The notes below the pieces were generated by a model, which saw only the letters and a program-made list of their open reading frames with translations, was not told the DNA's origin and did no database searches. The position numbers were made by a program, and so were the translations under genes. Below, one piece after another: positions 1 to 19,978 of a stretch of DNA of 63,944 bases. The stretch is from a virus (Duplodnaviria > Caudoviricetes), in IMG/VR virus record IMGVR_UViG_3300048998_000126, positions 1-63,944 of that record; one strand, written 5' to 3'. Position 1 is the first letter of the stretch, and every line of letters starts with the position of its first letter.

Positions 1-127
1 ACGGCCAGGTCACTAACGTGGACATCGGCTACGCCATGGCGCCGGAGCTGGTCCGTCTGTTCGGTGCGCGCCGGGTAAACAAGGGCTTGGCATTCAAGCT
101 TATGGCTGGGCAGATAACCGATAACGA
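1..127. repeat. 127-bp terminal direct repeat (copy 1); assembly circularisation overlap
   Basis: Identical to 63818-63944. The length of 127 matches a common assembler k-mer, and the repeat lies inside an ORF that reads through the junction. Confidence 0.95.
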
Positions 128-172
128 CGTGGGCGTCGCGCGATGGATTGTGCACAATCACAAGGTCGATCT

Positions 173-457
173 GTGAGCGTGTTTACCCAAGCCGAACGGG
201 ACTATCTGGGCAAGCGGGGCTTCCAGATCGTAGGCGAATCCTCGGCACGGGCCATGGGCACTAATCGCTTGTCAAAAGCCCTGACCAAAGTCCCTTCGAA
301 CAACAAGGACCCGCACTGCCCGTGGTACTGGACGGCCGTGGCTTCCAGCCAGGACGAGAACGTCGCTCTGGAGCTGGTCGTCTCGGCGTCGGAGCAGATC
401 TCGGACCTGATCACGGCGTTTGTGACTGCGGAGTTAAGAGCATGGCGCAGACAGTAG
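173..457 (+). CDS. Small early protein, paralogous family member 1
   Basis: GTG at 173 overlaps the TGA of the junction-spanning ORF. N-term FTQAERDYLGKRGF, C-term SDLITAFVTAELRAW. Confidence 0.75.
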   Translation: MSVFTQAERDYLGKRGFQIVGESSARAMGTNRLSKALTKVPSNNKDPHCPWYWTAVASSQDENVALELVVSASEQISDLITAFVTAELRAWRRQ

Positions 458-690
458 ACGAGGACACCCGTGTTTATATGGCCGCTCGGGGATTTGTACC
501 TACAACCGCTCTCCAACTGTACCGACTCGGGACACCTGGGACCTCAAAAACCATTACCTACAGCGGCGGCCAGTGGAGCGCCCATGTCGTAAACTGGGCC
601 GGCCCTAACGATCTGGTGTGTATCGGTCCCGACCCCATCACCTGCTTTATCACCGCTGAACTCATGAACTGGAGCAACCCTGATGCCTGA
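442..690 (+). CDS. Small early protein, paralogous family member 2
   Basis: GGAG upstream of ATG 442. N-term EDTRVYMAARGF, C-term PDPITCFITAELMNW. Confidence 0.8.
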   Translation: MAQTVDEDTRVYMAARGFVPTTALQLYRLGTPGTSKTITYSGGQWSAHVVNWAGPNDLVCIGPDPITCFITAELMNWSNPDA

Positions 691-1042
691 AGATAAAAAG
701 CCCGACCTGCAAGCGTTCCTTGAACAGCTCGCCAGCCAGTCCGCCGCTCAGCTAGAGGCAGACGCCGCGCTCGGCATGTTCATCCGCAAGGCCTTCGGTG
801 GCTCGCTGCTGACTGCCCTGCGCAGTCCTGACCCGATGGAGCTGGTTTACTTCTGCGCTCGCGAGCTGGTCGGCCACACGGTCAACAAGAGCGAGAAGGG
901 TGTCGTGATTAGCTGCACGGACTTCACCGTCAACGACAAGCCGGTCGGCGACTGGCAGGTAATCGTGACACCGTACGACAAAGAGCTGGCCGAAGCCGTG
1001 GCGGAGCAGCAGCGAGAAGCCGGTAATGGCACGGTACATTAG
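683..1042 (+). CDS. Hypothetical protein
   Basis: 119-aa ORF overlapping both neighbours, with GGAG upstream and genome-typical codons. Confidence 0.75.
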   Translation: MPEDKKPDLQAFLEQLASQSAAQLEADAALGMFIRKAFGGSLLTALRSPDPMELVYFCARELVGHTVNKSEKGVVISCTDFTVNDKPVGDWQVIVTPYDKELAEAVAEQQREAGNGTVH

Positions 1043-1253
1043 CGCAAGATGGTTCGAACTCGATCCTAGGCGCAGGTATTACGGTGATCTAGGATCCACC
1101 ACCAAGCAGTGCTTTTGCGTTCACGTAGACGACGATGAAACGTGGTTCGTCGTCCCACCGAGCGACCAGCCATGGCCGGACATCGTGTTCCCCGACCTGG
1201 AGACGGCTAAAACCTGGGTCGAAATAGAGGCGTCGAACCATGCCAATTCCTAA
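1026..1253 (+). CDS. Small early protein, paralogous family member 3
   Basis: C-term VFPDLETAKTWVEIEASN. Confidence 0.75.
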   Translation: MARYISARWFELDPRRRYYGDLGSTTKQCFCVHVDDDETWFVVPPSDQPWPDIVFPDLETAKTWVEIEASNHANS

Positions 1254-1488
1254 CGCAGCACCGGCCGACGTCCTGCCTGCGGGCTGGATTCAACTGCCTG
1301 GGTGGCAAGCCTGGACACGTGGTAGCGTCCAGAACTGGGCTAAACAATGGGACGTCGAGCGCGACGGTACGCAATACGCTGTCAGCCGCAACGGCAGTGG
1401 CGAGTACCTCGGCGGAGATCGGTTGCTGTTCCCGACGCCGCTGGCCGCCATGATGTGGGTCGAACTGGAAATCTCGAACGCCTCATAA
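1240..1488 (+). CDS. Small early protein, paralogous family member 4
   Basis: GAGG SD. N-term LPAGW, C-term LFPTPLAAMMWVELEISN. Confidence 0.8.
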   Translation: MPIPNAAPADVLPAGWIQLPGWQAWTRGSVQNWAKQWDVERDGTQYAVSRNGSGEYLGGDRLLFPTPLAAMMWVELEISNAS

Positions 1489-1503
1489 CCGCTTGTCATA
1501 AGC

Positions 1504-1532
1504 TTGATCAACCGTTTCAACTCATATATAGT
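1504..1532 (+). promoter_or_regulatory. Putative sigma70 promoter upstream of the AAA+ ATPase
   Basis: TTGATC-17 nt-TATAGT in an AT-rich intergenic gap. Confidence 0.6.
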
Positions 1533-1579
1533 TACTACACAGAGCAGCAATACAGCCGCTCTGACTGATCAACCAGCAA

Positions 1580-1594
1580 TCACGACTGTCGTGA
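1580..1594. promoter_or_regulatory. Palindrome TCACGACTGTCGTGA (operator-like; extends to AATCACGACTGTCGTGATT)
   Basis: Perfect dyad between the promoter and RBS of the ATPase gene; one of 7 copies. Confidence 0.7.
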
Positions 1595-1619
1595 TTCAGC
1601 ATTTCGGAGAACCACCCGC

Positions 1620-2771
1620 ATGAACGTCTCTCAACTCAAACCGATCATCGTCGCGCTGTACAACGCGGATATTACCGGCATGCTCTGGGGCGCGCCGGGT
1701 CTGGGCAAGTCGTACAGCTTCCGCGAAGCGGCCCGCGAACTGAAGACCCAGCTGGGTCTGACCGGTCCGGTACTGGAACGCCACGAGGTGCGCGGGTTCA
1801 TCCAGAGCGGCGGCGATATCAAGACCGCTTTCGGCATGTTCGACCTGCGTCTGAGCCAGTGCGATCCGGTGGACATCGGCGGTCTGCCGCGCGAGAACAA
1901 GGCCAACGGCACCATGGAACGTCTGCCGCCGAGCTGGTTTGCCCACACCCTGCGCAACGACCTGCCCGACTTCGGTATCCTGCTGCTGGACGAGCTGCCA
2001 TCGGCCCCGGCGTCGGTACAGAACGCGGCCTACCAGATCACGCTCGACAAGGTCATCGACGAGTACAAGCTGAAGGACGGTTGGGCTGTGTTCGGCGCGG
2101 GTAACCGCATGACCGATGGCGGCGTGTTCTTCAAGATGGCCATGGCGCTGGCCAACCGCATGTGCCACATCGACGTCGAGTCGAACCTGGACAGCTGGGT
2201 TGACTGGGCTATCGACAACAACATCGATCACAGCCTGCTGGCATTCATCCGCTTCAAGCCTGACCTCCTCAACGAGTTTGAGGCGCACGTGAAGGACAAG
2301 CGCAAGGGCTTGGCGTTCTCCACCGAGCGCGTGTGGGAGAAGACCAACGACTTTCTGGCGAACAACAGCCACGTCGACGGCGTGACCATGCAGGCGATCC
2401 TGGACGGCATCGTCGGACCTGGCCCGGCGGCGGAGTACATCGGTTTTCGCAAGGTCTGGCAGAACATGCCGGACATCAGCCAGATCTGTATCGATCCGCT
2501 GTCCGCGCCGCTGCCCGAAGACGCCGCGACGCAGTACGCTGTATGTACCGCCATGGCTGCCCAGTGCACCCACACGAACATCCCGAACATGTTCGCCTAC
2601 GTGGACCGGTTCACCGCCGCAGGCCGCGCGGAGCTGGCCCTGCTGTTCGTGAAGGACATGCAGCGCCGTGACGGCATCAACCGCGGGCAGAACAAGCCCG
2701 GCTATAAGTCCCCCGTAACAGCACCGGAGTACAGCGTGTGGGCGCACAAGAACAAAGAACTGTTCGGCTGA
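1620..2771 (+). CDS. MoxR/dynein-related AAA+ ATPase
   Basis: Walker A GAPGLGKS, D(L)RLSQxDPVDIxGLP motif, Walker B LLLDE, sensor-1 AGNR, arginine finger ALANR. Confidence 0.9.
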   Translation: MNVSQLKPIIVALYNADITGMLWGAPGLGKSYSFREAARELKTQLGLTGPVLERHEVRGFIQSGGDIKTAFGMFDLRLSQCDPVDIGGLPRENKANGTMERLPPSWFAHTLRNDLPDFGILLLDELPSAPASVQNAAYQITLDKVIDEYKLKDGWAVFGAGNRMTDGGVFFKMAMALANRMCHIDVESNLDSWVDWAIDNNIDHSLLAFIRFKPDLLNEFEAHVKDKRKGLAFSTERVWEKTNDFLANNSHVDGVTMQAILDGIVGPGPAAEYIGFRKVWQNMPDISQICIDPLSAPLPEDAATQYAVCTAMAAQCTHTNIPNMFAYVDRFTAAGRAELALLFVKDMQRRDGINRGQNKPGYKSPVTAPEYSVWAHKNKELFG

Positions 2772-2815
2772 AACGCCAGCAGGACCCGAAGGCGGAGCAC
2801 GAGGCGCGCACCGGA

Positions 2816-3223
2816 ATGTGCGCGAACATGTTGCAGCTTGGGTGGAAGTGCAAGGGATGGACGACGTTGGGACGCCCCAACCACTTCCGCCAGAAGTTCG
2901 GCGACGTGTTCTACGCTATCAAGTCGGCGAACAACGGCGGCACCGAGTGGCGGGCGGAAATGTCGACGGGGCGGACGATACCGCTTCGAAAGACCGGTCA
3001 GAACGTCCACATCATGGCGAAAATAGAGGGGCCGCGTCTGCGCGGGCCTGTAGCGCTGGCCACGTGGCTGGCAGTGGAGATCCGAAATGGCTGTATCCGT
3101 ATTGACGAGAGCAAAGGCCCAGCTGGTGCTCCAGGAGCCGTTCTACGCGACGATCCTCCTGAACCTGAAGGTAGTGGAGACGGACAAGACCAATGGTCGC
3201 CCTTTGTGGATGGTCGCAACTGA
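2816..3223 (+). CDS. Small early protein, paralogous family member 5 (start uncertain)
   Basis: MLQLGW near the N-term and GPVALATWLAVEIRN just before the next gene start. The frame runs 137 nt into the vWA gene. Confidence 0.6.
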   Translation: MCANMLQLGWKCKGWTTLGRPNHFRQKFGDVFYAIKSANNGGTEWRAEMSTGRTIPLRKTGQNVHIMAKIEGPRLRGPVALATWLAVEIRNGCIRIDESKGPAGAPGAVLRDDPPEPEGSGDGQDQWSPFVDGRN

Positions 3224-4235
3224 CGGGGCGAACCTGTACGTCAACCCGGCCAACTTCGAAACGCTGTCGGTAGCCGAAGCCAAGGGCGCGCTCAAGCACG
3301 AGGTTATGCACATCGCGGGTATGCACCTGTGGCGTGGTGGCGGCAAAGAGGCGGACCGCTGGAACCAGGCTTGCGACTACTCGATCAACCCGATCATCCT
3401 GGACGAGGGCGGAGCGTTGCCGAGCGGCGTACTGGACGGGACACCGTTCAAGGGCATGAGCGCCGAGCAGATCTACAAGATCCTGCCGCCGTCCCCACCC
3501 AAGGACCCGAACGCGCCGCGCGATCCTAACGGCAACCCGCTAGATGACGACATGATGCCGCCGCAGAACCCTGGCGCGTCCGGCGAAGCAGCAGCCAAGG
3601 TGATGGTGGCTCAAGCGGCGGCAGTGGCCAAGGCTCAGGGTAAGCTGCCCGGCTCGCTGAAAGAGCTGGTGGACAGCGTCATGCGGCCAACGGTGGACTG
3701 GAAGGAACAGCTTCAACAGTTCCTGACCGAGATCGAGCCAGCGGACTACAGCTTTGCCCGGTGCAACCGCCGGTTCATCGCAGGCGATGCCTCGATCTAT
3801 CTGCCGGGTATGTCGTCGAACGACTCCATGCGCGAACTGGGCTACGTCAACGACACGTCGGGGTCGATCAGTCTGGACGAGATGCGCAAGGGCTTGGGCG
3901 AGATCGGCGGGGCCGTGGAGGACGTGAAGCCGTCGAAGCTGATCGTCGCTCACTGTGACTCGAAGGTTCAGCACCACGAGGTCTTCGATCACCCGTCGCT
4001 GGCGACAGTGACCGAGAAGCTGGAGCGTCACGGCGGGGGCGGTACGAACATGCCGGCGGCGCTGACGTGGTTTACCCGCAAGTTTCCAAATGTGCAGGCC
4101 GTGATTGTTTTTACTGATGGGGAGACCCCATTCGGGAGCGAAGATGACTACCCATTCCCAGTGCTTTGGGCTATTACCAGCAAGCGGATTACCGCTCCGT
4201 GGGGAACCACCGTCCATGTTGAACTTGACGGCTGA
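3087..4235 (+). CDS. HExxH metallopeptidase + vWA domain protein (DUF2201-like)
   Basis: ATDG..LYVNP, HEVMH zincin motif, WNxAxDxxIN, Pro-rich linker, then vWA MIDAS DTSGS / GGGGT / FTDG and PVLW. Confidence 0.9.
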   Translation: MAVSVLTRAKAQLVLQEPFYATILLNLKVVETDKTNGRPLWMVATDGANLYVNPANFETLSVAEAKGALKHEVMHIAGMHLWRGGGKEADRWNQACDYSINPIILDEGGALPSGVLDGTPFKGMSAEQIYKILPPSPPKDPNAPRDPNGNPLDDDMMPPQNPGASGEAAAKVMVAQAAAVAKAQGKLPGSLKELVDSVMRPTVDWKEQLQQFLTEIEPADYSFARCNRRFIAGDASIYLPGMSSNDSMRELGYVNDTSGSISLDEMRKGLGEIGGAVEDVKPSKLIVAHCDSKVQHHEVFDHPSLATVTEKLERHGGGGTNMPAALTWFTRKFPNVQAVIVFTDGETPFGSEDDYPFPVLWAITSKRITAPWGTTVHVELDG

Positions 4236-4485
4236 CGAGCTGGAACTGCTGAAAACACTGGGCTTCGTGCCCAGTGTTCTGACGCCGGGTCAGTGGACGA
4301 AGATGGTCGACGGCATCCAGATGGCGAAGCTTGTCCGACCGCCTAGCGGTGACTGGGAGATGACGACCTGGACGCGGCCGGGGGACGCGACAACGTACGA
4401 CAGCATGCTGCCGCGTAAGGCCCCGTTCAAGTCCCAGACCATCGGCCCGCTACTGACGTGGGCGCACGTTGAGGGGTTGATCTGA
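4216..4485 (+). CDS. Small early protein, paralogous family member 6
   Basis: N-term LTADELELLKTLGF, C-term FKSQTIGPLLTWAHVEG. Confidence 0.75.
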   Translation: MLNLTADELELLKTLGFVPSVLTPGQWTKMVDGIQMAKLVRPPSGDWEMTTWTRPGDATTYDSMLPRKAPFKSQTIGPLLTWAHVEGLI

Positions 4486-4844
4486 TGCGAGCGGGGAGAG
4501 CTACGCACCCTGGCGAAGACCACGCAATGAGAGAAGACCCGCGCATGCGCTGGTTCCCGATGTCGTGGTGTCTGTCTAACCACGACTGGTCCGAGTACAT
4601 CAAGAAGACCTGGCCGCATGTCTACGTGAACGGCGATGCGATCAAGAACTCGCCGACGAAAGACGATCCGCTTGGCGCCCGACCCTTTCTCGCGTTCGGC
4701 CACAACAGCGACAACCAGACGTTCCAGGTCAGGCTGTTTGACGAATCATCGCCGTGGCTCACACCGGACGCCGTGGAGGCTTATCTGTACATCCACTGGC
4801 CGGAATATTTCAGGAGAGGCAGCAATGGGCAGGCACCAGAATAA
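4485..4844 (+). CDS. Hypothetical protein (weak family resemblance)
   Basis: TGATG-coupled start. The C-term WLTPDAVEAYLYIHW only loosely matches the family motif. Confidence 0.6.
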   Translation: MRAGRATHPGEDHAMREDPRMRWFPMSWCLSNHDWSEYIKKTWPHVYVNGDAIKNSPTKDDPLGARPFLAFGHNSDNQTFQVRLFDESSPWLTPDAVEAYLYIHWPEYFRRGSNGQAPE

Positions 4845-5394
4845 ACCCTGGCAGAAGCGCTGGGTTCCGCAGCCGGGTCCGCGTGTCCAGAACGCCGGTT
4901 TCACTGCCCCGGCGACGCCAGAGGGGTGGCACCGACACGAGCGCACCGACTGGTGCGAATACCTCTCTGGGACCTGGGGTAACGGCTGGCGGGTCATCGG
5001 CAAAGCAGGCGTTAAGTGGAAGGTCTACGAGACAAAACTGGACTTCCTCCTGCACGACGAAACCTACGTTTCGAGCGATCTTGTTTTCGAATCCAACTCG
5101 TTCGAGGCGTGCGTAACCTTCGTCAAGATCGAGCAGTCCAACGAACCGGAGCGAGCCATCGGTATGGATTGGGCCGGTATCGAGTCGAAAACTGCGCGGC
5201 TGTCCTTGGGATACAACACTGGTCGGCGTCCGCTTAAGATTGGCGACTTGGTCGCAAGCGAAGCAGCCGCGCAAGACATGCTCGCCCAGTACCGCGCAGC
5301 GTTCATGGGCCAAGAGTTCACGACAGTCGTGATCGACGAGGCGGCTCAACTTGACTTTTCAAAGTTGGAGGACCGTGTCCATGCCCGCCCATAG
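4825..5394 (+). CDS. Paralogous family member 7 with C-terminal extension
   Basis: AGGAG SD. TPEGW ... FESNSFEACVTFVKIEQSN, followed by ~80 extra residues. Confidence 0.7.
   Translation: MGRHQNKPWQKRWVPQPGPRVQNAGFTAPATPEGWHRHERTDWCEYLSGTWGNGWRVIGKAGVKWKVYETKLDFLLHDETYVSSDLVFESNSFEACVTFVKIEQSNEPERAIGMDWAGIESKTARLSLGYNTGRRPLKIGDLVASEAAAQDMLAQYRAAFMGQEFTTVVIDEAAQLDFSKLEDRVHARP
5318..5332. promoter_or_regulatory. Palindrome TCACGACAGTCGTGA (intragenic)
   Basis: Exact copy inside the CDS, read as FTTVV. Confidence 0.65.
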
Positions 5395-5905
5395 TCAGAT
5401 CGAAACGTACACCAAGCGCTTCAGCGAGAACGTCGAGGCCGGGTGGGAGACTCTGCGCGCCCTCCATGAGTTGGGCTACGAGCTGGTGGCGCATCAAGAG
5501 CAGGAGCTGATGTTCATCCGCGCGAACACAGCAATCGTCCCTATAGCGATGTCCGGCCGTCTGGCCTGGATGCACAGCATGTCTACGCCAGTGCACCGCG
5601 TGAACCTCAACATGCGGCTTATGCGCGGCGAGCCTCATTTTACGGACGCCATGGCTGTCGCTGCTTGGTGGGAGATAGAGGTCGCGAACAACCCACAGCC
5701 TGAGCCTTACTCGGCTCCAGGGCCAGCAGCTCCGACGTGGCAAGGTCCGACACTCAATCCACAGCACGTCGCTGCTGGAGTGCCGTACGGCGGGCTGGCT
5801 CCAATAGCGAATCCTCCATGGGACGGCAACGTCTCGCCCAAGCAACAGGCCGAGATGGAGGCGTTTCTTTATGGGATTAATAGCGGTCGGGGCACTCGAT
5901 CATGA
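5381..5905 (+). CDS. Paralogous family member 8 with Pro-rich extension
   Basis: GGAGG SD. LRALHELGY ... HFTDAMAVAAWWEIEVANN, followed by a Pro/Ala-rich tail. Confidence 0.75.
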   Translation: MPAHSQIETYTKRFSENVEAGWETLRALHELGYELVAHQEQELMFIRANTAIVPIAMSGRLAWMHSMSTPVHRVNLNMRLMRGEPHFTDAMAVAAWWEIEVANNPQPEPYSAPGPAAPTWQGPTLNPQHVAAGVPYGGLAPIANPPWDGNVSPKQQAEMEAFLYGINSGRGTRS

Positions 5906-6246
5906 CACCGCTGTCACTGACCGACCTGGTCATGCCAGACGGGTGGTTCTGCGTGAACATGTCGGCGTCGGGTGTGGGATTGTACGAGAAGTGGTTTGTA
6001 GTGGAGAAACCCGCGTTCAGCTTACGTTTCGGTAACCCCGTCCACGCCGGAAAACATCAGACCAGGACTTATCGCGAAACCACCAAGTACCGAGTTTGCT
6101 TTAACGGCTTCTGTGGCGGATGGACAATACAGGAGAAGAAAACGGGCGTCGGCGACTGGCAGTGGTTTATGTCCGGTGTGGCCTTTCCTTCGCACGTAGG
6201 CGCAATGCTTGCCCTTGAGATAGAACTAAGTAATAATAAAGCCTGA
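5902..6246 (+). CDS. Small early protein, paralogous family member 9
   Basis: ATGA overlap. MPDGW ... AFPSHVGAMLALEIELSNN. Confidence 0.75.
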   Translation: MTPLSLTDLVMPDGWFCVNMSASGVGLYEKWFVVEKPAFSLRFGNPVHAGKHQTRTYRETTKYRVCFNGFCGGWTIQEKKTGVGDWQWFMSGVAFPSHVGAMLALEIELSNNKA

Positions 6247-6290
6247 TATATAGCTCTTACACACTTCCGAACTTAAAAAGAGTAACCAAC

Positions 6291-7160
6291 ATGACAAATG
6301 AATCCCGCATCCACGGCCACGCAATGCTCGTCGGCCTGAACGTCACCCAGTGGTCCGCCCGCAAAGTCGACAAGCGCGCCGCTGCCGAAGTCGCCAGTAC
6401 CCACAACGTCGCCAGCAACAAGGGCACCTACTACAAGTCGTTGGTAGAGGGCGGAGCGCTCGAAGAAATCAAGGTCATCGCCACCAAGGCCCGCGCAGCG
6501 CACTACCGCCGCACGCTGCCGTGGTCGGACGCCGGCCCGCGTATCCTGTCCAACATCGGGTACCTCGACTACATGGCCGAGATCGCCGCCCTGCGCGACG
6601 AGTTCGACGTTCAGGTCGAGAAGTTCGTTGTCGAGTACCCAGCGCTGCGCGAGGAAGCCAAGCGCTTGCTCGGTACCCTGTTCAACGAAGCCGACTACCC
6701 GAGCACCGCAGTCGTCTCCGCCAAGTTCTCGATGGAAACCGTTGTCATGCCGATTCCACGGGGCGAAGACTTTCGCTGCGACATCGGCGAGGCCGAAGTT
6801 GAAGCCATCCGCCAGTCGATTGAGCAGGGCAATACGCGCGCCGTCGAGACTTGCATGAGCGACGCCTTCAACCGAGTGTTGAAGGTCACCGAAGCGCTGA
6901 TGGACCGTCTCGGCGCCGAAGACGCTGTGTTCCGCGACACCCTGATCACCAACGCTCGCGACCTGGCCGACATCCTGCCGTCGCTGAACATCACCGGCGA
7001 CCCGGTCCTGACCGACTTGACGAACCAGCTGGTGAACAATATCTGCGTGCACGAGCCTGAGGCTCTGCGCCACAACAAGACCACCCGGCGCCAGGCGTAT
7101 GACGCCGCCATGAAAATGAACGCTGGGCTGATCGACTTTTTCTCCGGGGGTGCGCAATGA
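6291..7160 (+). CDS. Helical phage protein, DUF3150-like (commonly near MoxR/vWA genes)
   Basis: 289-aa ORF with LVxLNVxxWSxRKxD, TLPW..G.R.L and YP motifs. Family assignment is from recall. Confidence 0.6.
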   Translation: MTNESRIHGHAMLVGLNVTQWSARKVDKRAAAEVASTHNVASNKGTYYKSLVEGGALEEIKVIATKARAAHYRRTLPWSDAGPRILSNIGYLDYMAEIAALRDEFDVQVEKFVVEYPALREEAKRLLGTLFNEADYPSTAVVSAKFSMETVVMPIPRGEDFRCDIGEAEVEAIRQSIEQGNTRAVETCMSDAFNRVLKVTEALMDRLGAEDAVFRDTLITNARDLADILPSLNITGDPVLTDLTNQLVNNICVHEPEALRHNKTTRRQAYDAAMKMNAGLIDFFSGGAQ

Positions 7161-7765
7161 CTATCAAATCGAAACACGAACAGGAACTGGAAGCAGAGCT
7201 CAAGGGCCTGCTGTCCGGTGCGCTGTCGGCCAAGGATGTACTGAGCGGGCCGCGTAAAGCCGTTGCCAGCAAGCCGGGCGTTCCGTTGCCGACCGCCATG
7301 GACAAAACAGCGGAGGGGCTTCGCGAGCTGCGGGACGCGCACGTAAGTCCAGTCCCCGCCGGTGTCTATAGAGGCATTGGCGAACATATCCGTTCCCAGC
7401 CCGCGCTGGGGGCGCCCTATGGCCCGGCCACGGATAATCACGACAGTCGTGACCCGATGGCCCGCGTGCTGGACCTGCTCGAGCGGCTGGAGACCCGCAC
7501 CGTCCGTATGGAAACCCGGATCACCAACACCATGCGTTACCTGGGCTTCCCGCCCCGGGCGCCGCTCATGGACCCGCCGAGAGGGCGTGTGTGCTGGTCT
7601 GACGGCGATCTCGTGGTCACCGGCTCCAACGTGCCAGTGCGCGACATCAGTTGGCTCATGGCCCAGAGCAACCCTAAGCACGACGTGAGAATCGTCGTCA
7701 ATAACGTGGTGTGGGCAACCCTGCACCACCAACCTCAAGCCGCTTTCGGCGTAGAAGAGAACTAA
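7157..7765 (+). CDS. Hypothetical protein
   Basis: ATGA overlap with the upstream gene; 202 aa with a coiled-coil-like middle segment. Confidence 0.7.
   Translation: MTIKSKHEQELEAELKGLLSGALSAKDVLSGPRKAVASKPGVPLPTAMDKTAEGLRELRDAHVSPVPAGVYRGIGEHIRSQPALGAPYGPATDNHDSRDPMARVLDLLERLETRTVRMETRITNTMRYLGFPPRAPLMDPPRGRVCWSDGDLVVTGSNVPVRDISWLMAQSNPKHDVRIVVNNVVWATLHHQPQAAFGVEEN
7438..7452. promoter_or_regulatory. Palindrome TCACGACAGTCGTGA (intragenic)
   Basis: Exact copy inside the CDS, read in a different frame (NHDSRD). Confidence 0.65.
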
Positions 7766-7769
7766 GGCA

Positions 7770-8225
7770 ATGACCGACAACCTGATCCCGGTGGCAGACG
7801 TCACCAACGAACCCACCCGCGACGAAGTCCACGCGCAGAGCCGCGAGCACGTCGAGGGCGTGCTGAACCGTAAGGACAGCTATCTGATGATCGCGATCAA
7901 CGGCGAAATCGAGGGCGGCCTGAACGTCATCGCGGCGTGCGACGAAGGCCAGCTTAACGTGTTCTCGCTGGCGCTGATCCAGATGCTGGGGATGGAGATC
8001 ATGGGCCCTGATCGCGTCCAGGCTATCCCGCCGCAGATGATCGGCGCGGTAGCTACGGCGACCGGCCTGAAGCGTCTGAACGACGTGGTGCAGGCTCAGG
8101 CGCAGCAGGCGGCGCAAGCCATGCAGCCAGCGCAGACACCGGCAGGCGATATCAACGCCGCGCATAAGGAAGCAGCCGAAGGCTTCGCTTCAGTGGCAGC
8201 CCAGACCGATGGCAAGCCGGTTTAA
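7770..8225 (+). CDS. Hypothetical protein
   Basis: 151-aa ORF, tightly packed, typical codon usage. Confidence 0.75.
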   Translation: MTDNLIPVADVTNEPTRDEVHAQSREHVEGVLNRKDSYLMIAINGEIEGGLNVIAACDEGQLNVFSLALIQMLGMEIMGPDRVQAIPPQMIGAVATATGLKRLNDVVQAQAQQAAQAMQPAQTPAGDINAAHKEAAEGFASVAAQTDGKPV

Positions 8226-8487
8226 AGGCACCAACAAGCCCACTTACATGCGTTGCACCTCGACCCCTTGTCGCCACCGCTTCAAGGGGTTTGAGGGTGA
8301 CAAGTGCACCCTGTGCGGGAAGAACGCCACGGTCAATGCCGAGTACGTCGCCCGGCCTTGGCGTAAGCATTTGTGCTACTGCACGGGCATGGCGTGGGGC
8401 GACAGGGGTTCACCGCATCGGTATGGCAGCGGGGACTGCGATTTTAATCCGAGGAAATATCAACATGACCCAGACCAGCAAACCTGA
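8209..8487 (+). CDS. Cys/His-rich putative zinc-binding protein
   Basis: CxxxxC, CxxC and CxC...HRxGSxxC motifs. Confidence 0.65.
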   Translation: MASRFKGTNKPTYMRCTSTPCRHRFKGFEGDKCTLCGKNATVNAEYVARPWRKHLCYCTGMAWGDRGSPHRYGSGDCDFNPRKYQHDPDQQT

Positions 8488-8686
8488 GTTTGTCACCGTA
8501 GTAGTTCGCGTCGACGACCCCGAAGCTGCCCAGCCGTGGCTCCACACCGTCGGTGCTGCGTTCGCGGAAAAAGAAACCATCGCCGGGATCACCGTCACCG
8601 GTATGGCGAACAGCGACGAGATGACCCGCGTCGAATACCTGGAAGGCCTGTTGGACGAGGAGAATATCCATTATGACCAGGCGTGA
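8465..8686 (+). CDS. Hypothetical protein
   Basis: GAGG SD before ATG 8465; overlaps the ligase start. Confidence 0.7.
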   Translation: MTQTSKPEFVTVVVRVDDPEAAQPWLHTVGAAFAEKETIAGITVTGMANSDEMTRVEYLEGLLDEENIHYDQA

Positions 8687-9596
8687 ACCGAAGAAACCTA
8701 ACCTGGCCTGCGACGCCCCGGACGACATTGTCTTCCCGGTCTACGCCAGCCCGAAGATGGACGGCATCCGTGTCACGGTCTGGAACGGCGTCCCGTTGAC
8801 CCGTGCACTCAAGGACGTGCCGAACCATTACATCCGCGACACGATCAAGGCGGCGAACCTGCCCGCTGTGTTCGATGGCGAGCTGGTCGTGGGCAGCCCG
8901 ATGGCTCACGACTGTATCAACAAGACCACGTCAGGGGTGATGTCCCGCGACGGCCGGCCGGACTTTACGTTTTTCGTGTTCGACTATGTGCCGCTGGACT
9001 TCAGCGACGGAAGCCCGGACAGGAGCAGCACGTTCAGCGAGCGTTCCACTCGTTTGGCTACGCAGACATCGTCGTTTCAGGCGTTCCACCCGTGGTTCAA
9101 GATCCTGGAGCAAAAGCTTATCCAGAGCCCTGAAGAACTGGCGGCGTTCGAAGCTGAGCAGCTTACACTTGGTTTCGAGGGGGTGATCGTCTGCAACCCC
9201 CACGCGCTTTACAAGCACGGCCGCAGCACGGCGAAAGAGCAGGGGAAAATGAAGGTCAAACGCTTCAAGGACGCCGAGGCGATAGTGATCGGAGTTTATG
9301 AGCTGATGCGCAACGACAACCCGGCGACCACCAACGCGCTGGGGCACACCGAGCGCTCCAGCCACAAGGCCAACCTCGTGCCGATGGGCATGCTCGGCGC
9401 GCTGATCTGCCGTACGCCGGAGGGTGTCGAGTTCGAGATCGGTACCGGCTTCACCTACCTGCAACGCACGGTGCTGTGGCAGATGCGGGATCAGTTGGTC
9501 GGCCGGCTCGCGAAGTACAAGTTCTTCCCGGTGGGCGTCAAGGATAAGCCTAGGCACCCGGTGTTCCTGGCGTGGCGTGATTTGTCGGACGTGTGA
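8673..9596 (+). CDS. lig: ATP-dependent DNA ligase (minimal type)
   Basis: Motif I SPKMDGIR, motif III FDGEL, IIIa FFVFD, IV FEGVI, V KVK, and OB-fold GTGF ... PRHPVF. Confidence 0.93.
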   Translation: MTRREPKKPNLACDAPDDIVFPVYASPKMDGIRVTVWNGVPLTRALKDVPNHYIRDTIKAANLPAVFDGELVVGSPMAHDCINKTTSGVMSRDGRPDFTFFVFDYVPLDFSDGSPDRSSTFSERSTRLATQTSSFQAFHPWFKILEQKLIQSPEELAAFEAEQLTLGFEGVIVCNPHALYKHGRSTAKEQGKMKVKRFKDAEAIVIGVYELMRNDNPATTNALGHTERSSHKANLVPMGMLGALICRTPEGVEFEIGTGFTYLQRTVLWQMRDQLVGRLAKYKFFPVGVKDKPRHPVFLAWRDLSDV

Positions 9597-9597
9597 C

Positions 9598-9858
9598 ATG
9601 GCTTTCTCGACGCTGGTTACGGATCTGAACTCGCTGCGCCCCAGCGACGCGGTGTGCGAATACATGGCCGATAAAGGGTTTGTATGGAACAAGACGTTCG
9701 AGAATTTCCACATTCCGATTACTGGGTCGCGAGTGGTGTATCCGACTAAGGCTCGGACAGGGGCAACTTGGGCATGGACCACCGGCAAAACGCGCTGCGG
9801 TAACTTCGACTCGCCGATTACCGCGTACGTGAACGCCGAACTGGCAGGGTGGGAGTGA
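9598..9858 (+). CDS. Small early protein, paralogous family member 10
   Basis: CEYMADKGF ... NFDSPITAYVNAELAGW. Confidence 0.8.
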   Translation: MAFSTLVTDLNSLRPSDAVCEYMADKGFVWNKTFENFHIPITGSRVVYPTKARTGATWAWTTGKTRCGNFDSPITAYVNAELAGWE

Positions 9859-10100
9859 TGGGCAGATCAAGACGCAAGAACAACGATTTTCGTTTCATCC
9901 GTGGGCTCGGCTTCGTTCGCGCTATGCACCAGCCAGCACCGCGGCCGATCATGTTTACCCGAGGCAAGTGCTGCCTGTTCAAGCGCGGCGCGCACTGGTA
10001 CGCGGGGCGGTTAGGCGACGGCGATTTGACTTCGCCGGTCTTCGGATCGAACGCCACGGCGGCTTACCTGTACGCGCTTTGCGAAGGCTGGACGCAATGA
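9858..10100 (+). CDS. Small early protein, paralogous family member 11
   Basis: TGATG coupling. FRFIRGLGF ... VFGSNATAAYLYALCEGW. Confidence 0.75.
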   Translation: MGRSRRKNNDFRFIRGLGFVRAMHQPAPRPIMFTRGKCCLFKRGAHWYAGRLGDGDLTSPVFGSNATAAYLYALCEGWTQ

Positions 10101-10384
10101 GCCTGACAACCAGCCCGTACGCCAAGCCAGACGAGATCGCCTACCTCGAGGCGCGCGGCTACCGCGACACGTGGGGAGGCTGGCGCTTGTTCGAGAAACC
10201 CTTGAGCGGCCATGACGTGGACCGTCGCAACCCCTTTAAAAACGTAGTCCTGAGCCGCTACGTCGACGAACAATACTGCTGGCAGGCGTGCGCTTCGGAG
10301 GTAGCTCATTCGATGGGGCAGCCGTTCCCCGATCCCATAGCAGCCTTTGTTGACGCTGAGATCAGGAACTGGGGGCGGGTATGA
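10097..10384 (+). CDS. Small early protein, paralogous family member 12
   Basis: ATGA overlap. DEIAYLEARGY ... PFPDPIAAFVDAEIRNW. Confidence 0.8.
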   Translation: MSLTTSPYAKPDEIAYLEARGYRDTWGGWRLFEKPLSGHDVDRRNPFKNVVLSRYVDEQYCWQACASEVAHSMGQPFPDPIAAFVDAEIRNWGRV

Positions 10385-10629
10385 AACACAAGGACAGGGA
10401 GTTCTTTCGCGATTTGGGTTGGAAGCAGTTTCATAACAACTGCGACAACGACTGGCACGACGTTAGTACGGGGCGCTACGTGCAGATATCTTGGAACCAG
10501 GGCGTTTCGTATTGGCGCGCTATTCACAGCACCAGCGGCCCCGCCGCACGCTACTGGATAGGGCCTCGGCTAGATTGCCCGATTGCGGCCTACGTCCACG
10601 CGGAGCTGGAAAACTGGGGAGAACCCTAA
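10381..10629 (+). CDS. Small early protein, paralogous family member 13
   Basis: ATGA overlap. DREFFRDLGW ... RLDCPIAAYVHAELENW. Confidence 0.8.
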   Translation: MKHKDREFFRDLGWKQFHNNCDNDWHDVSTGRYVQISWNQGVSYWRAIHSTSGPAARYWIGPRLDCPIAAYVHAELENWGEP

Positions 10630-10889
10630 TGGCATTTACCAGCGACGAAATACAGTTCATGGCTGCGCACGGCTGGGATATACAGCCCGACGGCGTGACG
10701 TTCCGAGATCGTAGCTACCGGGAGACGAGCTGGATTGAACACGGCCCGTTCGGTTGGCAGATGGTCACTGATCACATCGGGAACGACCAGTTCGGCGAGT
10801 TCGACCATCGTGTGACTAGAAGCGAGACCTTCGACAGCCCTATCGCTGTCGTCGTATCAATGGAAATAGACCGGAGCAACAACCAATGA
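10629..10889 (+). CDS. Small early protein, paralogous family member 14
   Basis: TAATG coupling. SDEIQFMAAHGW ... TFDSPIAVVVSMEIDRSN. Confidence 0.8.
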   Translation: MAFTSDEIQFMAAHGWDIQPDGVTFRDRSYRETSWIEHGPFGWQMVTDHIGNDQFGEFDHRVTRSETFDSPIAVVVSMEIDRSNNQ

Positions 10890-11671
10890 GCGATACAACC
10901 GTACCAACAGGTCCGCGCCACGTCTCGATTGACCTCGAGACACTGGGCATCAAGCCCACCGCTTTGATCCTCTCCATCGGCGCCGTGGCGTTCGATCCGA
11001 AGACCGGCGAGCAGACCGACGACGGCTTCTATCGGATCGTCGACATCGCCCACGCCATCGGCGGCGGAGACATCGACCCCAGCACCGTCAACTGGTGGAT
11101 GAAGCAGTCGCAGGCGGCGCGCGACGAGATCTTCGGCGACGTCAACGCAGAGCAGCGGGTAAACCTGCGCGTGGCCCTGAGCGAGCTGAGCGACTACCTG
11201 GGCTTCAGCGAGGCCATCCCCGAGGGCGAGTTCCCGGATCTGGTTCTATGGGCGCGAGGGAGCAAGGACGAGCAGTGGCTGGACTCGGCTTACAAGGGCA
11301 TGCAGCTGGCTCCGCCGTTCGCGTACTGGCAGTGGAAGGACGAGCGCACGTTTACCGGCTACTTCAAACAGTTCCTGCCGGACCGCGGCGAGCTGGTGGC
11401 ACACAATGCGTTCGACGATGCCTTGTACCAATCGCTCTGCGTGAGCGCGGTGTTCCGCCGGCTGGCTGCTATCGGCCATAACGTGGGCTGGAAGAAAGCC
11501 GAGAAAATCACGACTGTCGTGAATTCTGAAAACGAAGGCTCGGAGGTAGAGCCGTGGGTTGGCCATGCGGCGCCGGCTTACATCGCTCCGCCGCCAGCGG
11601 ACGTGTCGGACTGGGAAGACAGTCATAAGGTCGACCCAGAAAATGACCACCCGAATACGGCCCATTCCTAA
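10886..11671 (+). CDS. DEDDh-family 3'-5' exonuclease
   Basis: VSIDLETLG (Exo I), ILSIGAV, T..WW..Q and HNAFDDA (Exo III). Confidence 0.85.
   Translation: MSDTTVPTGPRHVSIDLETLGIKPTALILSIGAVAFDPKTGEQTDDGFYRIVDIAHAIGGGDIDPSTVNWWMKQSQAARDEIFGDVNAEQRVNLRVALSELSDYLGFSEAIPEGEFPDLVLWARGSKDEQWLDSAYKGMQLAPPFAYWQWKDERTFTGYFKQFLPDRGELVAHNAFDDALYQSLCVSAVFRRLAAIGHNVGWKKAEKITTVVNSENEGSEVEPWVGHAAPAYIAPPPADVSDWEDSHKVDPENDHPNTAHS
11508..11522. promoter_or_regulatory. Palindrome TCACGACTGTCGTGA (intragenic)
   Basis: Exact copy in the 3' tail of the exonuclease gene (ITTVV). Confidence 0.65.
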
Positions 11672-11682
11672 ACCGGCCTAGA

Positions 11683-11728
11683 TTGTACACGGGTGTCCAG
11701 TTATTATACTCGACACCCGTTTTTGTTT
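11683..11728 (+). terminator. Intrinsic terminator-like hairpin overlapping a putative sigma70 promoter
   Basis: ACGGGTGTC(11689-97)/GACACCCGT(11712-20) stem followed by TTTTGTTT; TTGTAC-16 nt-TATACT is superimposed. Confidence 0.6.
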
Positions 11729-11741
11729 GAGGAGAACCACC

Positions 11742-11975
11742 ATGACCGACTGGGCCAAGGCCTACAACGGCCTATCCGCCGCAGGCTTCACCGACGACCA
11801 GATCGCTGGGCTGGCGGGGGTGACCCGCGCCGTTATCAACTCGGTGCGCAATGGCAACTACGCGTTCAGGCACGAGCCCGGCTACGAGGGCGGCAAGACC
11901 GTTCTGGCCAACCTGACCCACGCCATCGACATGGGCTGGATCGATCACGATCCCCTAGCGGAGCCGACACCATGA
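11742..11975 (+). CDS. Small HTH (Cro/XRE-like) DNA-binding protein
   Basis: GAGGAG SD; GFTDDQIAGLAGVTRAVINSVRNG...EP.Y fits an HTH pattern. Confidence 0.7.
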   Translation: MTDWAKAYNGLSAAGFTDDQIAGLAGVTRAVINSVRNGNYAFRHEPGYEGGKTVLANLTHAIDMGWIDHDPLAEPTP

Positions 11976-12121
11976 AAAATGCTCTCTTCCTCGCCATGCT
12001 ATTCCTGTTCGGGGCAATCAGCTACGGCGTGTCCGGCCTCGGCGAGGCGCAGCACATAGTCGTAATGACAGGGGTGGTTGTCCTTATGTGGACTACGAAG
12101 CTGTGGGAGTCGATGCCGTGA
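11972..12121 (+). CDS. Small membrane protein
   Basis: ATGA overlap; 49 aa with two hydrophobic stretches. Confidence 0.55.
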   Translation: MKNALFLAMLFLFGAISYGVSGLGEAQHIVVMTGVVVLMWTTKLWESMP

Positions 12122-14238
12122 CCCAACTCTACCCCTGGACGTTCGACGCCGAGTCGTACTACACCGACAAAGCCAACGGCGAGTACAGCCTTACCTGGCT
12201 GACCCCCGAGCAGTACATCCGCGACCCGCGCTTCGAACTGATCGGCTTCAGTCTCAAGCCAGGCGACGGCGAGACCCGTTGGTTCACTGGTACCCTCGAG
12301 TACCTGCGCGCTGTAGCGCAGTCGCTGGACTGGTCAAAGATCCTTGTCATCGGCCACAACATGAGCGAGTTCGATGCGCTGATCCTGACCGAAGTCCTCC
12401 TCGTTAAGCCCGCGGCCTACGCCTGCACCATGCAGATGGCCCGCGCTATCCACGGCGGCAAGTCGGCGGACGGCAAGCAGTTCAGCGCCAGCCTCGAGAA
12501 GGTCGCCATGTTCTACGGCCTGCCGCCCAAAGGGCAGGAGGTCAAGTACGCGATCAACAAGCGCCGGCTGGACTTCACCCAGTGGCAGATCGACCAGTAC
12601 GGCGGGTATTGCAACCTCGACGTCGACCTGTGCTGGGCACTCTACAACCTGATGTCGGCGAAGATGCCGCCGCAGTCCATGTGGATGGCCAACCTGTGCA
12701 CGAAGATGTTCGCCCAGCCCCGACTGGCACTGGACGCCCCGCTGCTGGATCTGATGGCGCAGGACATGCAGGTTCGCAAGGCTGGTCTGATGGAACGTGT
12801 CGCAACCATTCTCAACGTGCCCGCCGGCCCTGACCGTATGCTCGCCACCCAGAAGGTGCTGCGTCAGGACAAGATCCTCGCGCAGGTACTGGAGAAGCAG
12901 TACGACGTCGAGCCACCGATGAAGTGGTCAGTCAAGCAGAGCAAGATGGTTTACGCCTTCGCCAAAACCGACGAGGGGATGGAAGCGCTGCTGGACTTCG
13001 AGGACGAGTCGGACCCTGAGGGCGCCGAAGACATACAGGCGCTGGCAGCGGCCCGTCTAAGCGTGAAGTCGACGCTCGCCGAGTCCCGTGTCGAGCGCTT
13101 CCGTGGCATCGCCTCGCGCGGCCTGCTGCCGGTCCCACTGTCCTACGGCAAGACCCACACGGATCGACTGGCAGGTAGCCAGAAGATCAACATGCAGAAC
13201 ATGGGCGGTACCAAGTTCGTCAACAAGAAGACCCCCACCGGCGCGCTGCTGCGCACGCACAGGGGTATCGAGCGGCTGCTGGCGTTCAATGAACCGACGA
13301 TGCAGGTGAAGGTCGCCGACGGCACGATCCTCGACATCATGGACGCAAAGAAGGAAATGCAGATCTGGGTGGTCGGCCTGCGCGACTGTATCGTGGCGCC
13401 GCCGGGATTCAAGATCGTCGTGGTCGACTCCAGCCAGATCGAGCTGCGGGTGTGCCACCTGCTGGCCGGCCAGCTGGATACGGTCGACGAGCTGCGCCGC
13501 GGGATCGACGTCTACTCCTCGTTTGCCTCCACCGTCTACAACCGGCCGATCACCAAAAAGGACAAGAAGGAACGCCAGCACGGTAAGGTCGGCATGCTCC
13601 AGCTTCAATACCAGGCCGGCGGCAAGTCGTTCAAGAACGCCGCTCGGATCATGGGCGGCGTCCGGCTGAACGATGACGAAGCACACGCCACCGTCAAGAC
13701 CTATCGCGACCGGTTCACCGAGGTGGTGGGCTTCTGGCGCAAGTGCCAGCACTCGATCAAGAAGATGAACCAGGGCGGCGGGCAGTACCTGGATCAGTGG
13801 GGTCTGGTGAAGATCGAGCACAACCGGCTGACCATGAACGGCCGGCTGCCACTCCAGTACCAGAACCTGCGCGAGGAGCTGCTTTCCTTCGACGGTCGCG
13901 ACCCAGAGATGATGTGGGTCTACGACGACAAGGAGAAGCGCTACGCCAAGAAGATCTACGGCGGCAGCGTCACGGAGAACCTGTGCCAGTGGATCGCCGG
14001 CAGCGTGGTTAAAGACCAGACCCTGGAGCTGGAAGCCGAGTTCGGTAACTACCAGCAGCACGGCGAGGGCGTCGTCCTGATGGTCCACGACGAAGCGGTT
14101 CTATGCGTGCGCGAGGAGAAGGCTGATCACTGCCTGAAGCGCGCTATCGAGACTTTCAGCGTGGCGCCAGCGTGGTGGAACCAGTTGCCAGTGGCTGCCG
14201 AGGGCGGAATAGGCGACAGATACTCGGAGGCTAAATAA
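12118..14238 (+). CDS. polA: Family A DNA polymerase with N-terminal 3'-5' exonuclease
   Basis: Exo DAE and GHNxxEFD; motif A VDSSQIELRV; motif B RQHGKVGMLQLQY; motif C VHDE. GTG start overlaps the upstream stop. Confidence 0.93.
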   Translation: MTQLYPWTFDAESYYTDKANGEYSLTWLTPEQYIRDPRFELIGFSLKPGDGETRWFTGTLEYLRAVAQSLDWSKILVIGHNMSEFDALILTEVLLVKPAAYACTMQMARAIHGGKSADGKQFSASLEKVAMFYGLPPKGQEVKYAINKRRLDFTQWQIDQYGGYCNLDVDLCWALYNLMSAKMPPQSMWMANLCTKMFAQPRLALDAPLLDLMAQDMQVRKAGLMERVATILNVPAGPDRMLATQKVLRQDKILAQVLEKQYDVEPPMKWSVKQSKMVYAFAKTDEGMEALLDFEDESDPEGAEDIQALAAARLSVKSTLAESRVERFRGIASRGLLPVPLSYGKTHTDRLAGSQKINMQNMGGTKFVNKKTPTGALLRTHRGIERLLAFNEPTMQVKVADGTILDIMDAKKEMQIWVVGLRDCIVAPPGFKIVVVDSSQIELRVCHLLAGQLDTVDELRRGIDVYSSFASTVYNRPITKKDKKERQHGKVGMLQLQYQAGGKSFKNAARIMGGVRLNDDEAHATVKTYRDRFTEVVGFWRKCQHSIKKMNQGGGQYLDQWGLVKIEHNRLTMNGRLPLQYQNLREELLSFDGRDPEMMWVYDDKEKRYAKKIYGGSVTENLCQWIAGSVVKDQTLELEAEFGNYQQHGEGVVLMVHDEAVLCVREEKADHCLKRAIETFSVAPAWWNQLPVAAEGGIGDRYSEAK

Positions 14239-19942: not shown

Positions 19943-19978
19943 TACACCCAACACACTTCCGTGAACCATGAGGTATGT

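Follow-up and report, generated by a model that had tools for sequence, protein, structure and literature searches.

We report that the genome of a tailed virus (Caudoviricetes), represented by IMG/VR record IMGVR_UViG_3300048998_000126, carries a module of three large genes for a MoxR-like AAA+ ATPase, a protein in which a zincin motif is fused to a von Willebrand factor A (vWA) domain, and a DUF3150-like protein, and that these three genes form a conserved triad common to phages and conjugative plasmids. The DNA analyzed (here referred to as the window) is the entire record of 63,944 bases, with a 127-nucleotide (nt) terminal direct repeat and a completeness rating of 100%. In the window and its relatives the module is surrounded by lineage-specific arrays of genes for a small protein superfamily with an alpha-beta5-alpha fold. 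The ATPase-vWA pair is already known in phages; the triad with DUF3150 spanning phages and conjugative plasmids is new, and the superfamily with its arrays is newly defined here, as no description was found in the literature searched. The reading that we favor, tentatively and at a little short of an even chance, is that the module remodels client proteins for establishment of the element or for counter-defense, while the paralogues would be independent binders of host proteins.

The three genes are arranged in the window in the order ATPase, one small gene, vWA, five small genes and DUF3150-like, with the vWA gene starting 316 nt downstream of the ATPase gene:

1620-2771, + strand: MoxR-like AAA+ ATPase, 383 amino acids, phrog_1297, homologue of N4 gp24, Walker A at nt 1689-1712
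3087-4235, + strand: predicted zincin and vWA protein with a metal ion-dependent adhesion site (MIDAS), 382 amino acids, HExxH at nt 3297-3311, DxSxS at nt 3852-3866, homologue of N4 gp25
6291-7160, + strand: DUF3150-like protein, 289 amino acids, recognized through its homologues, AlphaFold2 model with a predicted local distance difference test (pLDDT) of 91.6

An earlier note on this DNA, made from the letters alone, had described an intact ATPase and a single protein combining a zincin motif with a complete MIDAS, and both descriptions were borne out. In the ATPase translation, the motifs GAPGLGKS (residues 24-31), LLLDE (121-125), AGNR (160-163) and ALANR (176-180) are all present, i.e., Walker A, Walker B, sensor 1 and the arginine motifs are intact, and an alignment of 4 sequences, with identities as low as 38%, shows no variation at residues G24, P26, G27, G29, K30, S31, E125, N162, R163 and R180. 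The ATPase matched phrog_1297 ("ATPase") in the PHROGs with an E value of 2.2e-83. Its sole Pfam match was PF00004, with 16.9 bits under the cut-off of 21.2; the AAA_3 and AAA_5 cut-offs were not reached, a search of NCBIfam gave no match, and sequence and profile searches of the PDB found nothing significant (profile matches with E values of 0.07 or worse). As no Pfam AAA cut-off, NCBIfam model or solved structure was reached, membership in the MoxR clade is indirect and would follow from homologues, i.e., the ATPase of the relative G003 (38% identity) passes AAA_3 with 29.0 bits against a cut-off of 27, and plasmid homologues are named "MoxR family ATPase" by PGAP. A total of 808 phage records match the ATPase, with an identity to the window ATPase below 32% in every one.

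The vWA protein matched PF13203 (DUF2201_N; E 1.8e-44, 152.8 bits against a cut-off of 23.2) as well as PF09967 (DUF2201; E 2.7e-16, 60.3 bits against a cut-off of 26.4). In 37 homologues with 37-80% identity, neither the zincin positions H71, E72, H75 and H80 nor positions D256, S258, S260, T320 and D344 of the MIDAS show any substitution, indicating that the two sites are intact; sequence and profile searches of the PDB with this protein found nothing significant. In the PHROGs the family is named "HNH endonuclease" (phrog_1314), which for proteins with the DUF2201_N and DUF2201 domains is evidently a misnomer. The same label has spread to a RefSeq product name, i.e., that of gp51 of Pseudomonas phage DL64 (L038 6558-7787).

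The protein that the earlier note had placed after the module as DUF3150-like is supported as such by its homologues, which are annotated as DUF3150 in GenBank (in Synechococcus phage MinM2 and in plasmids). PF11348 is precomputed on 5 of the 120 homologues listed, one listed homologue with 57% identity is named "DUF3150 domain-containing protein" in UniRef, and a plasmid homologue reached 22.1 bits against PF11348, below the cut-off of 24.9. The window protein itself had no match in Pfam, even at E values up to 10, nor in PHROG or NCBIfam. Given the relationships to its homologues, "DUF3150-like" appears to be a fair name. The AlphaFold2 model comprises 6 strands and long helices. Foldseek found nothing with this model, VIA-align returned only generic four-helix bundles on residues 165-289 (Z of 9.0 or less, under the tool's bar for helical proteins), and sequence and profile searches of the PDB gave nothing significant. 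A 277-amino acid "ClpX" gene located upstream of the ATPase gene in a LIT1-like phage was considered as a DUF3150 homologue and rejected as unrelated.

When the window proteins were compared with relatives by tblastn, the ATPase, vWA and DUF3150-like proteins persisted at every depth, from the relative G001 (58%, 60% and 51% identity, respectively) to the relative G003 (34%, 35% and 27%, respectively). The order of the genes varies, as G003 and Synechococcus phage MinM2 show the order ATPase, DUF3150 and vWA with other small genes interposed. The dN/dS values (ratios of nonsynonymous to synonymous substitution rates) of the triad genes are 0.03-0.07, indicating strong constraint. In plasmids, the DUF3150-like protein matched 60 records, the majority from Burkholderia, Paraburkholderia, Cupriavidus and related bacteria; 29 of the records are typed as conjugative (partner counts used the best 60 of 133 plasmid matches for the vWA protein and the best 60 of 118 for the ATPase). 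A vWA homologue is located directly downstream on the same strand in at least 57 of these 60 records, a count that takes in one pair 2.8 kb apart and one pair across the record origin, and an ATPase homologue is located upstream in at least 53 of the 60. In Cupriavidus basilensis pRK1-1 (NZ_CP062805), the three genes are contiguous and adjoin a PRTRC cassette gene; the ATPase and the vWA protein of this plasmid are 27% (E 5e-37) and 33% (E 5e-63) identical to those of the window, respectively. A full-text literature search on DUF3150 and DUF2201 did not find a description or function of the triad, although supplements may hold more. The earlier note had not recognized the DUF3150-like protein as a partner; it is this protein, rather than a paralogue, that is the conserved third member.

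Small genes also interrupt the module in more distant elements. In MinM2 (OQ594354, L039 6878-7904), three mutually similar ORFs (open reading frames) of approx. 112 amino acids separate the DUF3150 gene from the vWA gene; they are not matched by the superfamily profile described below and may represent an independent paralogue array within the same module. In Simplicispira suum plasmid NZ_CP027670 (L041 3517-6740), eight small genes part the ATPase gene from the DUF3150-vWA pair; one of the eight is annotated as "toxin of addiction system", and a DNA cytosine methyltransferase gene and a DUF4942 gene are located nearby.

One possible explanation for the ATPase-vWA pair is that it represents a chaperone and protease for virion assembly, as Iyer et al. 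2021 (PMC7824862) propose for group 2.2 jumbo phages, with the paralogues being unrelated to it. However, homologous triads are found on conjugative plasmids, which make no virions, and in the window the module is located in a + strand block together with replication genes, outside of the structural block on the - strand. The + strand genes run from approx. 58.3 kb through the record ends up to approx. 25.4 kb and include small early proteins, the studied region, ligase, exonuclease, DNA polymerase, helicase and primase genes, while the structural genes (i.e., portal/adaptor, tail proteins and a 1914-amino acid virion protein) are on the - strand at 25.3-57.7 kb. The plasmid homologues and the non-structural placement therefore argue against a virion-specific role, and we regard this explanation as very unlikely.

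To define the small-protein superfamily, a first family profile was built with seven evident members as seed and contained 9 robust ORFs at convergence (E values from 1e-13 to 1e-28; 143-457, 442-690, 1026-1253, 1240-1488, 5902-6246, 9598-9858, 10097-10384, 10381-10629 and 10629-10889); the ORFs lying between the large genes did not yet reach significance with this profile. With an enlarged profile that included relatives, ranks 1 to 13 among the 869 six-frame ORFs of the window were all candidates previously chosen by eye, and with the iterated superfamily profile 12 of these 869 ORFs matched at E values of 1e-3 or less. The twelve members are placed as four upstream of the ATPase gene, one between the ATPase and vWA genes, two between the vWA and DUF3150-like genes, and five between a ligase and an exonuclease gene; none was seen elsewhere among the 869 ORFs, and the 5.6-kb stretch of other small early genes (58.3-63.9 kb) likewise contains none. 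These members, the other small genes of the module and the genes that flank the last array are as follows:

143-457, + strand: superfamily member, likely true start near 173, E 2e-5 outside the seed, superfamily profile E 4.9e-11
442-690, + strand: superfamily member, E 3.7e-5 outside the seed, superfamily profile E 2.2e-13
1026-1253, + strand: superfamily member found with the first profile, superfamily profile E 1.5e-11
1240-1488, + strand: superfamily member found with the first profile, ending 132 nt before the ATPase gene, superfamily profile E 2.8e-10
2816-3223, + strand: divergent member between ATPase and vWA genes, enlarged profile E 0.0031, iterated profile E 1.5e-14
4216-4485, + strand: small gene, possible divergent member, enlarged profile E 0.14, dN/dS 0.28, hhalign score 18.0 compared to 6.2-12.0 for 10 controls
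4485-4844, + strand: small gene, membership unsupported, 31% identity in G001, dN/dS 0.32
4825-5394, + strand: gene for 189 amino acids, membership unsupported, dN/dS 0.17
5381-5905, + strand: 174-amino acid protein, first approx. 120 residues a divergent superfamily domain, enlarged profile E 0.0069, iterated profile E 1.2e-13
5902-6246, + strand: superfamily member found with the first profile, superfamily profile E 4e-9
9598-10889, + strand: array of five members (9598-9858, 9849-10100, which is weak, 10097-10384, 10381-10629 and 10629-10889)
8673-9596, + strand: ATP-dependent ligase, upstream of the five-member array
10886-11671, + strand: Rv2179c-like exonuclease, downstream of the five-member array

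The earlier note had placed one family paralogue between the ATPase and vWA genes and others on both sides of them. This view stands for 2816-3223, 5381-5905, 5902-6246 and the four upstream genes; conversely, 4216-4485, 4485-4844 and 4825-5394 fail membership by the family hidden Markov model (HMM), the first of these at an E value of 0.14 and the other two without support. The weak array member 9849-10100 moved from an E value of 0.2 with the enlarged profile to 7e-4 with the iterated superfamily profile. Single-sequence hhalign comparisons gave scores of 15.1-21.0 for six window candidates as compared to 6.2-12.0 for ten control ORFs, with probabilities of only 4-18%. The final 137 nt of 2816-3223 overlap the vWA gene, the remaining 90 non-overlapping codons show a dN/dS of 0.16, and positional orthologues of this gene are present in the relatives G001, G007, G008 and G010; in G001, a positional homologue of 4216-4485 follows the vWA gene.

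As compared to the close relative L028, the interleaved ORFs show dN/dS values of 0.16-0.32 and dN values 4-20 times those of the triad genes, i.e., they are real genes under purifying selection that evolve faster than the triad genes. The ligase-exonuclease array is only 35-54% identical to that in the same slot in L028, while the ligase is 86% and the exonuclease 93% identical; this array is thus hypervariable between close relatives (35-54% as compared to 86-99% identity). As array copies are exchanged between phages with 86-99% identity elsewhere, they have the appearance of autonomous accessory genes with fast turnover.

An AlphaFold2 model of the family (20-sequence alignment; pLDDT 91.1, predicted template modeling score 0.81) consists of one helix followed by five strands and a second, C-terminal helix. 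Every one of the 45 window-type sequences has a Glu at the same position of this last helix; G13 and W45 are nearly invariant, and isoelectric points range from 4.1 to 10.2. The family had no match in Pfam or PHROG and nothing meaningful in PADLOC, and only 30 of 1.84 billion representative proteins, the window's own included, matched the family profile at E values of 1e-3 or less. A tblastn search of 50,697 phage records with member 10381-10626 found nothing at E values up to 1. With the family model, the best Foldseek matches had E values of 0.16 (PDB) and 0.10 (BFVD), the best VIA-align match was TtfA (Z of 5.9), followed by rows resembling immunity proteins and type III chaperones (all within the noise of the tool), and a structure-atlas search gave no named relative; the ORF between the ATPase and vWA genes (2816-3223) is absent from this atlas.

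We also assessed the distribution of the superfamily among the best 80 of 578 viral relatives found in IMG/VR with an alignment of the vWA protein. The first family profile matched 4 of these 80 loci, exactly those with vWA proteins 57-97% identical to the window's, and the iterated superfamily profile added two (L047 and L048), so that the module occurs without the family in 74 rather than 76 of the 80 loci. Among the 80 loci the superfamily is confined to the phage sub-lineage with vWA proteins at least 50% identical to the window's, and all 87 of 18,701 ORFs that match the iterated profile come from this phage lineage. In oriented loci, 80 superfamily matches were on the + strand and 0 on the - strand; the 7 minus-strand matches were all in two unoriented loci. 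The superfamily was not found in the module loci of MinM2, N4, LIT1-like phages, Bas51 or plasmids, and in L049, which is without the family (vWA 46% identical), the ATPase-vWA gap is 57 nt. A degenerate DNA pattern for the C-terminal helix led to 11 genome stretches that hold no member at an E value of 0.01 (A1/A2 profiles), save one 15-position fragment (E 0.0058), and to real members in only 2 of 17 metagenome stretches (L024 and L028); the 11 reference-genome stretches thus give no sign of a prophage-borne family, the pattern being narrow.

Within the sub-lineage, the relatives G007 and G008 (loci L045 and L046) have matches upstream of the ATPase gene, between the ATPase and vWA genes, and between the vWA and DUF3150 genes, the first of which were found at E values of 3e-4 to 3e-5 with a profile built without them. 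The relative G010 (L048 3434-13542, a 60.6-kb IMG/VR record with a vWA protein 50% identical) has 23 small superfamily ORFs around the module in a window-like layout, i.e., 15 upstream, 1 between the ATPase and vWA genes, and 7 between the vWA and DUF3150 genes. A profile of the G010 copies and the family profile align over their full lengths (hhalign, 73 columns, probability 84.5%, E 7e-6). The upstream array of G010 is broken by an RNase H-like ORF at L048 6800-7288. G001 has four tandem copies 1.9 kb upstream of the ATPase gene, one between the ATPase and vWA genes, and at least 2 downstream; between its four-copy array and the module (L008 10717-11406) are a ParA-like ATPase gene (KGGxGKS-type P-loop) and a 113-amino acid ORF, which have no counterpart in the window. 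Members are also located away from the module, i.e., in the ligase-exonuclease slot of the window and among replication genes in the relatives G006 and G001.

According to the earlier note, each paralogue would be an exchangeable specificity factor that binds the MIDAS of the vWA protein or the ring of the ATPase and brings host proteins, e.g., defense factors, to the machine for unfolding or cleavage; we weighed this proposal together with the variant in which the paralogues are clients or decoys. Several observations are consistent with docking: members occupy all three positions of the module in the window, G001, G007, G008 and G010, the 23 copies of G010 being packed into precisely these positions; no window member is found among the other small early genes at 58.3-63.9 kb; the Glu is retained throughout the window-type members (45/45); and small genes inside the module also occur in MinM2 (three similar ORFs) and in the Simplicispira plasmid (eight). 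In addition, cellular MoxR-vWA "ternary" conflict systems use variable associated proteins (PMC7159879). On the other hand, no family member accompanies the module in 76 of the 80 viral loci (74 with the iterated profile) or in the plasmid, N4, LIT1-like, MinM2 and Bas51 loci, the plasmid operon of pRK1-1 has no interposed genes, members are also found in slots 2.4-11 kb from the module, and clustering would arise from tandem duplication alone. Moreover, only 3 of the 23 G010 copies, which form the sister branch, retain the near-invariant Glu on which the docking proposal had been built, and a Glu-MIDAS contact therefore cannot be the general mode of action, even though the invariance itself holds for window-type members. 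Co-folding of paralogue 10381-10626 (20-row alignment) with the vWA protein (37-row alignment) and Mg resulted in scores of 0.39, 0.00 and 0.00, which count neither way. With respect to the co-occurrence that the earlier note had named as a check, the module is much more widely distributed than the family. The link between module and array stands with respect to position, where the relatives make it stronger than the window alone could show, and is unsupported with respect to physical or functional coupling. Overall, the evidence neither establishes nor refutes the adaptor hypothesis, the link between paralogues and module is suggestive but unproven, and we consider docking adaptors unlikely. 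The more specific version, in which a MoxR-vWA-DUF3150 machine uses the small-protein arrays as interchangeable receptors for targeted degradation, each copy recognizing a different host protein, appears improbable to a greater degree.

Characterized MoxR-vWA pairs include RavA-ViaA, CbbQ-CbbO and NorQ-NorD. By analogy with these pairs, our favored reading of client remodeling for establishment or counter-defense is that the ATPase ring would remodel a client protein, that the vWA cofactor would hold this client through its MIDAS and so connect it to the ring, that the fused zincin domain could also cleave this client, and that the DUF3150-like protein would serve as a constant third subunit in client recognition or regulation. 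The module would act on proteins of the host or the element soon after cell entry, i.e., in establishment or counter-defense rather than in virion assembly; early action is suggested because the triad is found on conjugative plasmids and the module is placed in the replication and early block opposite the structural strand. The 12 paralogues would be independent binders of host proteins, with roles in takeover or anti-defense, that were multiplied by tandem duplication in accessory slots around the module. This reading builds on what was observed, i.e., the identities and motifs of the genes, the conservation of the triad, the distribution of the family and the selection acting on these genes. 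For counter-defense there is one experimental precedent, as a preprint (10.1101/2025.11.20.689424; HIDEN-SEQ) reports that bas54_0063, a Vequintavirus MoxR ATPase, is specifically required against the predicted defense system DS-28. The gene of the same number and name in the related phage Bas51, bas51_0063, encodes a protein 31% identical to the window ATPase over residues 73-289 (E 2e-21).

A number of observations weigh against this reading. Paralogues crowd around the module more tightly than independence predicts: 7 of the 12 window members are located within 143-7160 and the remaining 5 within 3.7 kb downstream; in G010, 23 of 25 matches are in the three intergenic positions of the module (of the others, one is borderline and touches the start of the DUF3150 gene and one is approx. 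6 kb away); in G008, 5 of 6 matches are inside the module span, the sixth being a 35-amino acid fragment with stop codons; and in each of the five family-bearing relatives examined (5/5), one or more members separate the ATPase gene from the vWA gene. The DUF3150-like gene was detected in only 16 of the 80 viral loci, such that most phage ATPase-vWA pairs (i.e., the N4-like ones) would appear either to be without DUF3150 or to have a form diverged past detection. By comparison, the ATPase gene is located upstream of the vWA gene in 70 of the 80 loci, and the other 10 loci are truncated within approx. 1.8 kb of that gene; the pair is thus the general case, of which the triad is a large subset. 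The equivalence of bas54_0063 and bas51_0063 is by gene numbering and annotation alone, and Iyer et al. 2021 (PMC7824862) proposed that the pair in jumbo phages assembles virions and processes proteins by proteolysis, on the model of a tail chaperone of an archaeal virus. Finally, it is we who infer a complex of the ATPase, vWA and DUF3150-like proteins, and the same applies to its client, its timing and the function of the paralogues.

Another possible explanation is that the module serves replication or maintenance of the element itself, e.g., by remodeling replisome or partition proteins rather than host proteins. The module is embedded among replication genes, the ParA-like gene of G001 is just upstream of it and a PRTRC cassette gene adjoins it in the plasmid, the N4 pair adjoins a dCTP deaminase gene, and helicase and polymerase genes follow in LIT1-like phages. 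However, domain and profile searches revealed no likeness to DNA-binding or nucleotide-metabolism domains in the three proteins, and a phage MoxR ATPase (bas54_0063) is reported to be dispensable on the laboratory strain and needed only against one defense system (10.1101/2025.11.20.689424). We thus consider a replication or maintenance role distinctly unlikely.

With 808 phage records matching the ATPase and 578 viral contigs matching the vWA protein, the ATPase-vWA pair is among the most widespread phage gene pairs lacking an assigned function. The DUF3150 partner common to conjugative plasmids points to the establishment of a mobile element in a new cell and provides a culturable plasmid system, while the lineage arrays around the module represent a natural experiment on exchangeable specificity factors. 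If these factors dock on the machine, they would represent a new principle of phage counter-defense; if they do not, they would still be new, rapidly diversifying candidates for host-interaction proteins.

A megablast of the studied region against the 50,697 phage records did not find a near relative, and a promoter and terminator scan of 1-12200 gave counts no higher than in shuffled sequence. A weak sigma-70-like site (TTGATC-17-TATAGT, 9 of 12 matches) is present at 1504-1532 (+ strand), immediately 5' of the ATPase gene and at the coordinate where the region described in the earlier note begins, but such sites in the region are not above shuffled controls. Elsewhere in the window, a 583-amino acid ORF at 19961-21712 (+ strand) contains 15-nt tandem repeats (families D1-D3) that encode low complexity of the GWG...APQQQ type, and it has PHROG matches only of unknown function. 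The 1914-amino acid protein encoded at 32676-38420 (- strand) resembles phrog_10089 ("DarB-like antirestriction") over its C-terminal 700 residues (E 3.8e-54) and may be an ejected virion protein. A tRNA-Met gene (57942-58018, - strand) is located at the junction between the two transcription blocks, next to the sole low-GC stretch of the genome (58000-60000; 0.51 as compared to approx. 0.61).

Among known systems, the cellular RavA-ViaA, CbbQ-CbbO and NorQ-NorD pairs resemble the window in combining an AAA+ ATPase with a vWA cofactor that bears a MIDAS. The VMAP/iSTAND conflict systems of cells, described as "ternary" by Kaur et al. 2020 (PMC7159879), resemble it in addition by their third protein, which is constant and accompanied by variable modules. 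The window differs from these systems in that its third protein is DUF3150-like and its peptidase is fused N-terminally to the vWA domain; compared by description only, VMAP-C has 7 strands and 6-7 helices (PMC7159879), as compared to 6 strands and long helices in the model of the DUF3150-like protein. Group 2.2 jumbo phages encode a MoxR ATPase together with a vWA cochaperone fused to a metallopeptidase, according to Iyer et al. 2021 (PMC7824862). In Bas51, bas51_0055 shows the same DUF2201_N and DUF2201 domain pair as the window protein; unlike in the window, the ATPase and DUF2201 genes are 3.6 kb apart and on opposite strands. The roles proposed for the pair in jumbo phages and Vequintavirinae diverge, i.e., virion assembly (PMC7824862) as compared to anti-defense for bas54_0063 (10.1101/2025.11.20.689424).

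The earlier note had stated that the ATPase-vWA pairing is known in phages, and N4 gp24/gp25 as well as Iyer et al. 2021 (PMC7824862) bear this out. The N4 ATPase is homologous to that of the window (27.8% identity, E 2e-29), and gp25, like the window vWA protein, has the DUF2201_N and DUF2201 domains (293 and 158 bits, respectively). The Schitoviridae pair (phrog_1297/phrog_1314) also shares with the window the order of ATPase then vWA and the placement in a non-structural block. N4-like pairs differ from the window in that the DUF3150-like gene is mostly undetected (16/80 loci have one) and the small superfamily is absent. The pRK1-1-type plasmid operon, on the other hand, has proteins homologous to all three of the window (27%, approx. 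31% and 33% identity), encoded on one strand and with a vWA protein that carries the DUF2201_N and DUF2201 domains; it differs from the window in its order (ATPase, DUF3150 and vWA), in having no interposed genes, and in being carried by a plasmid.

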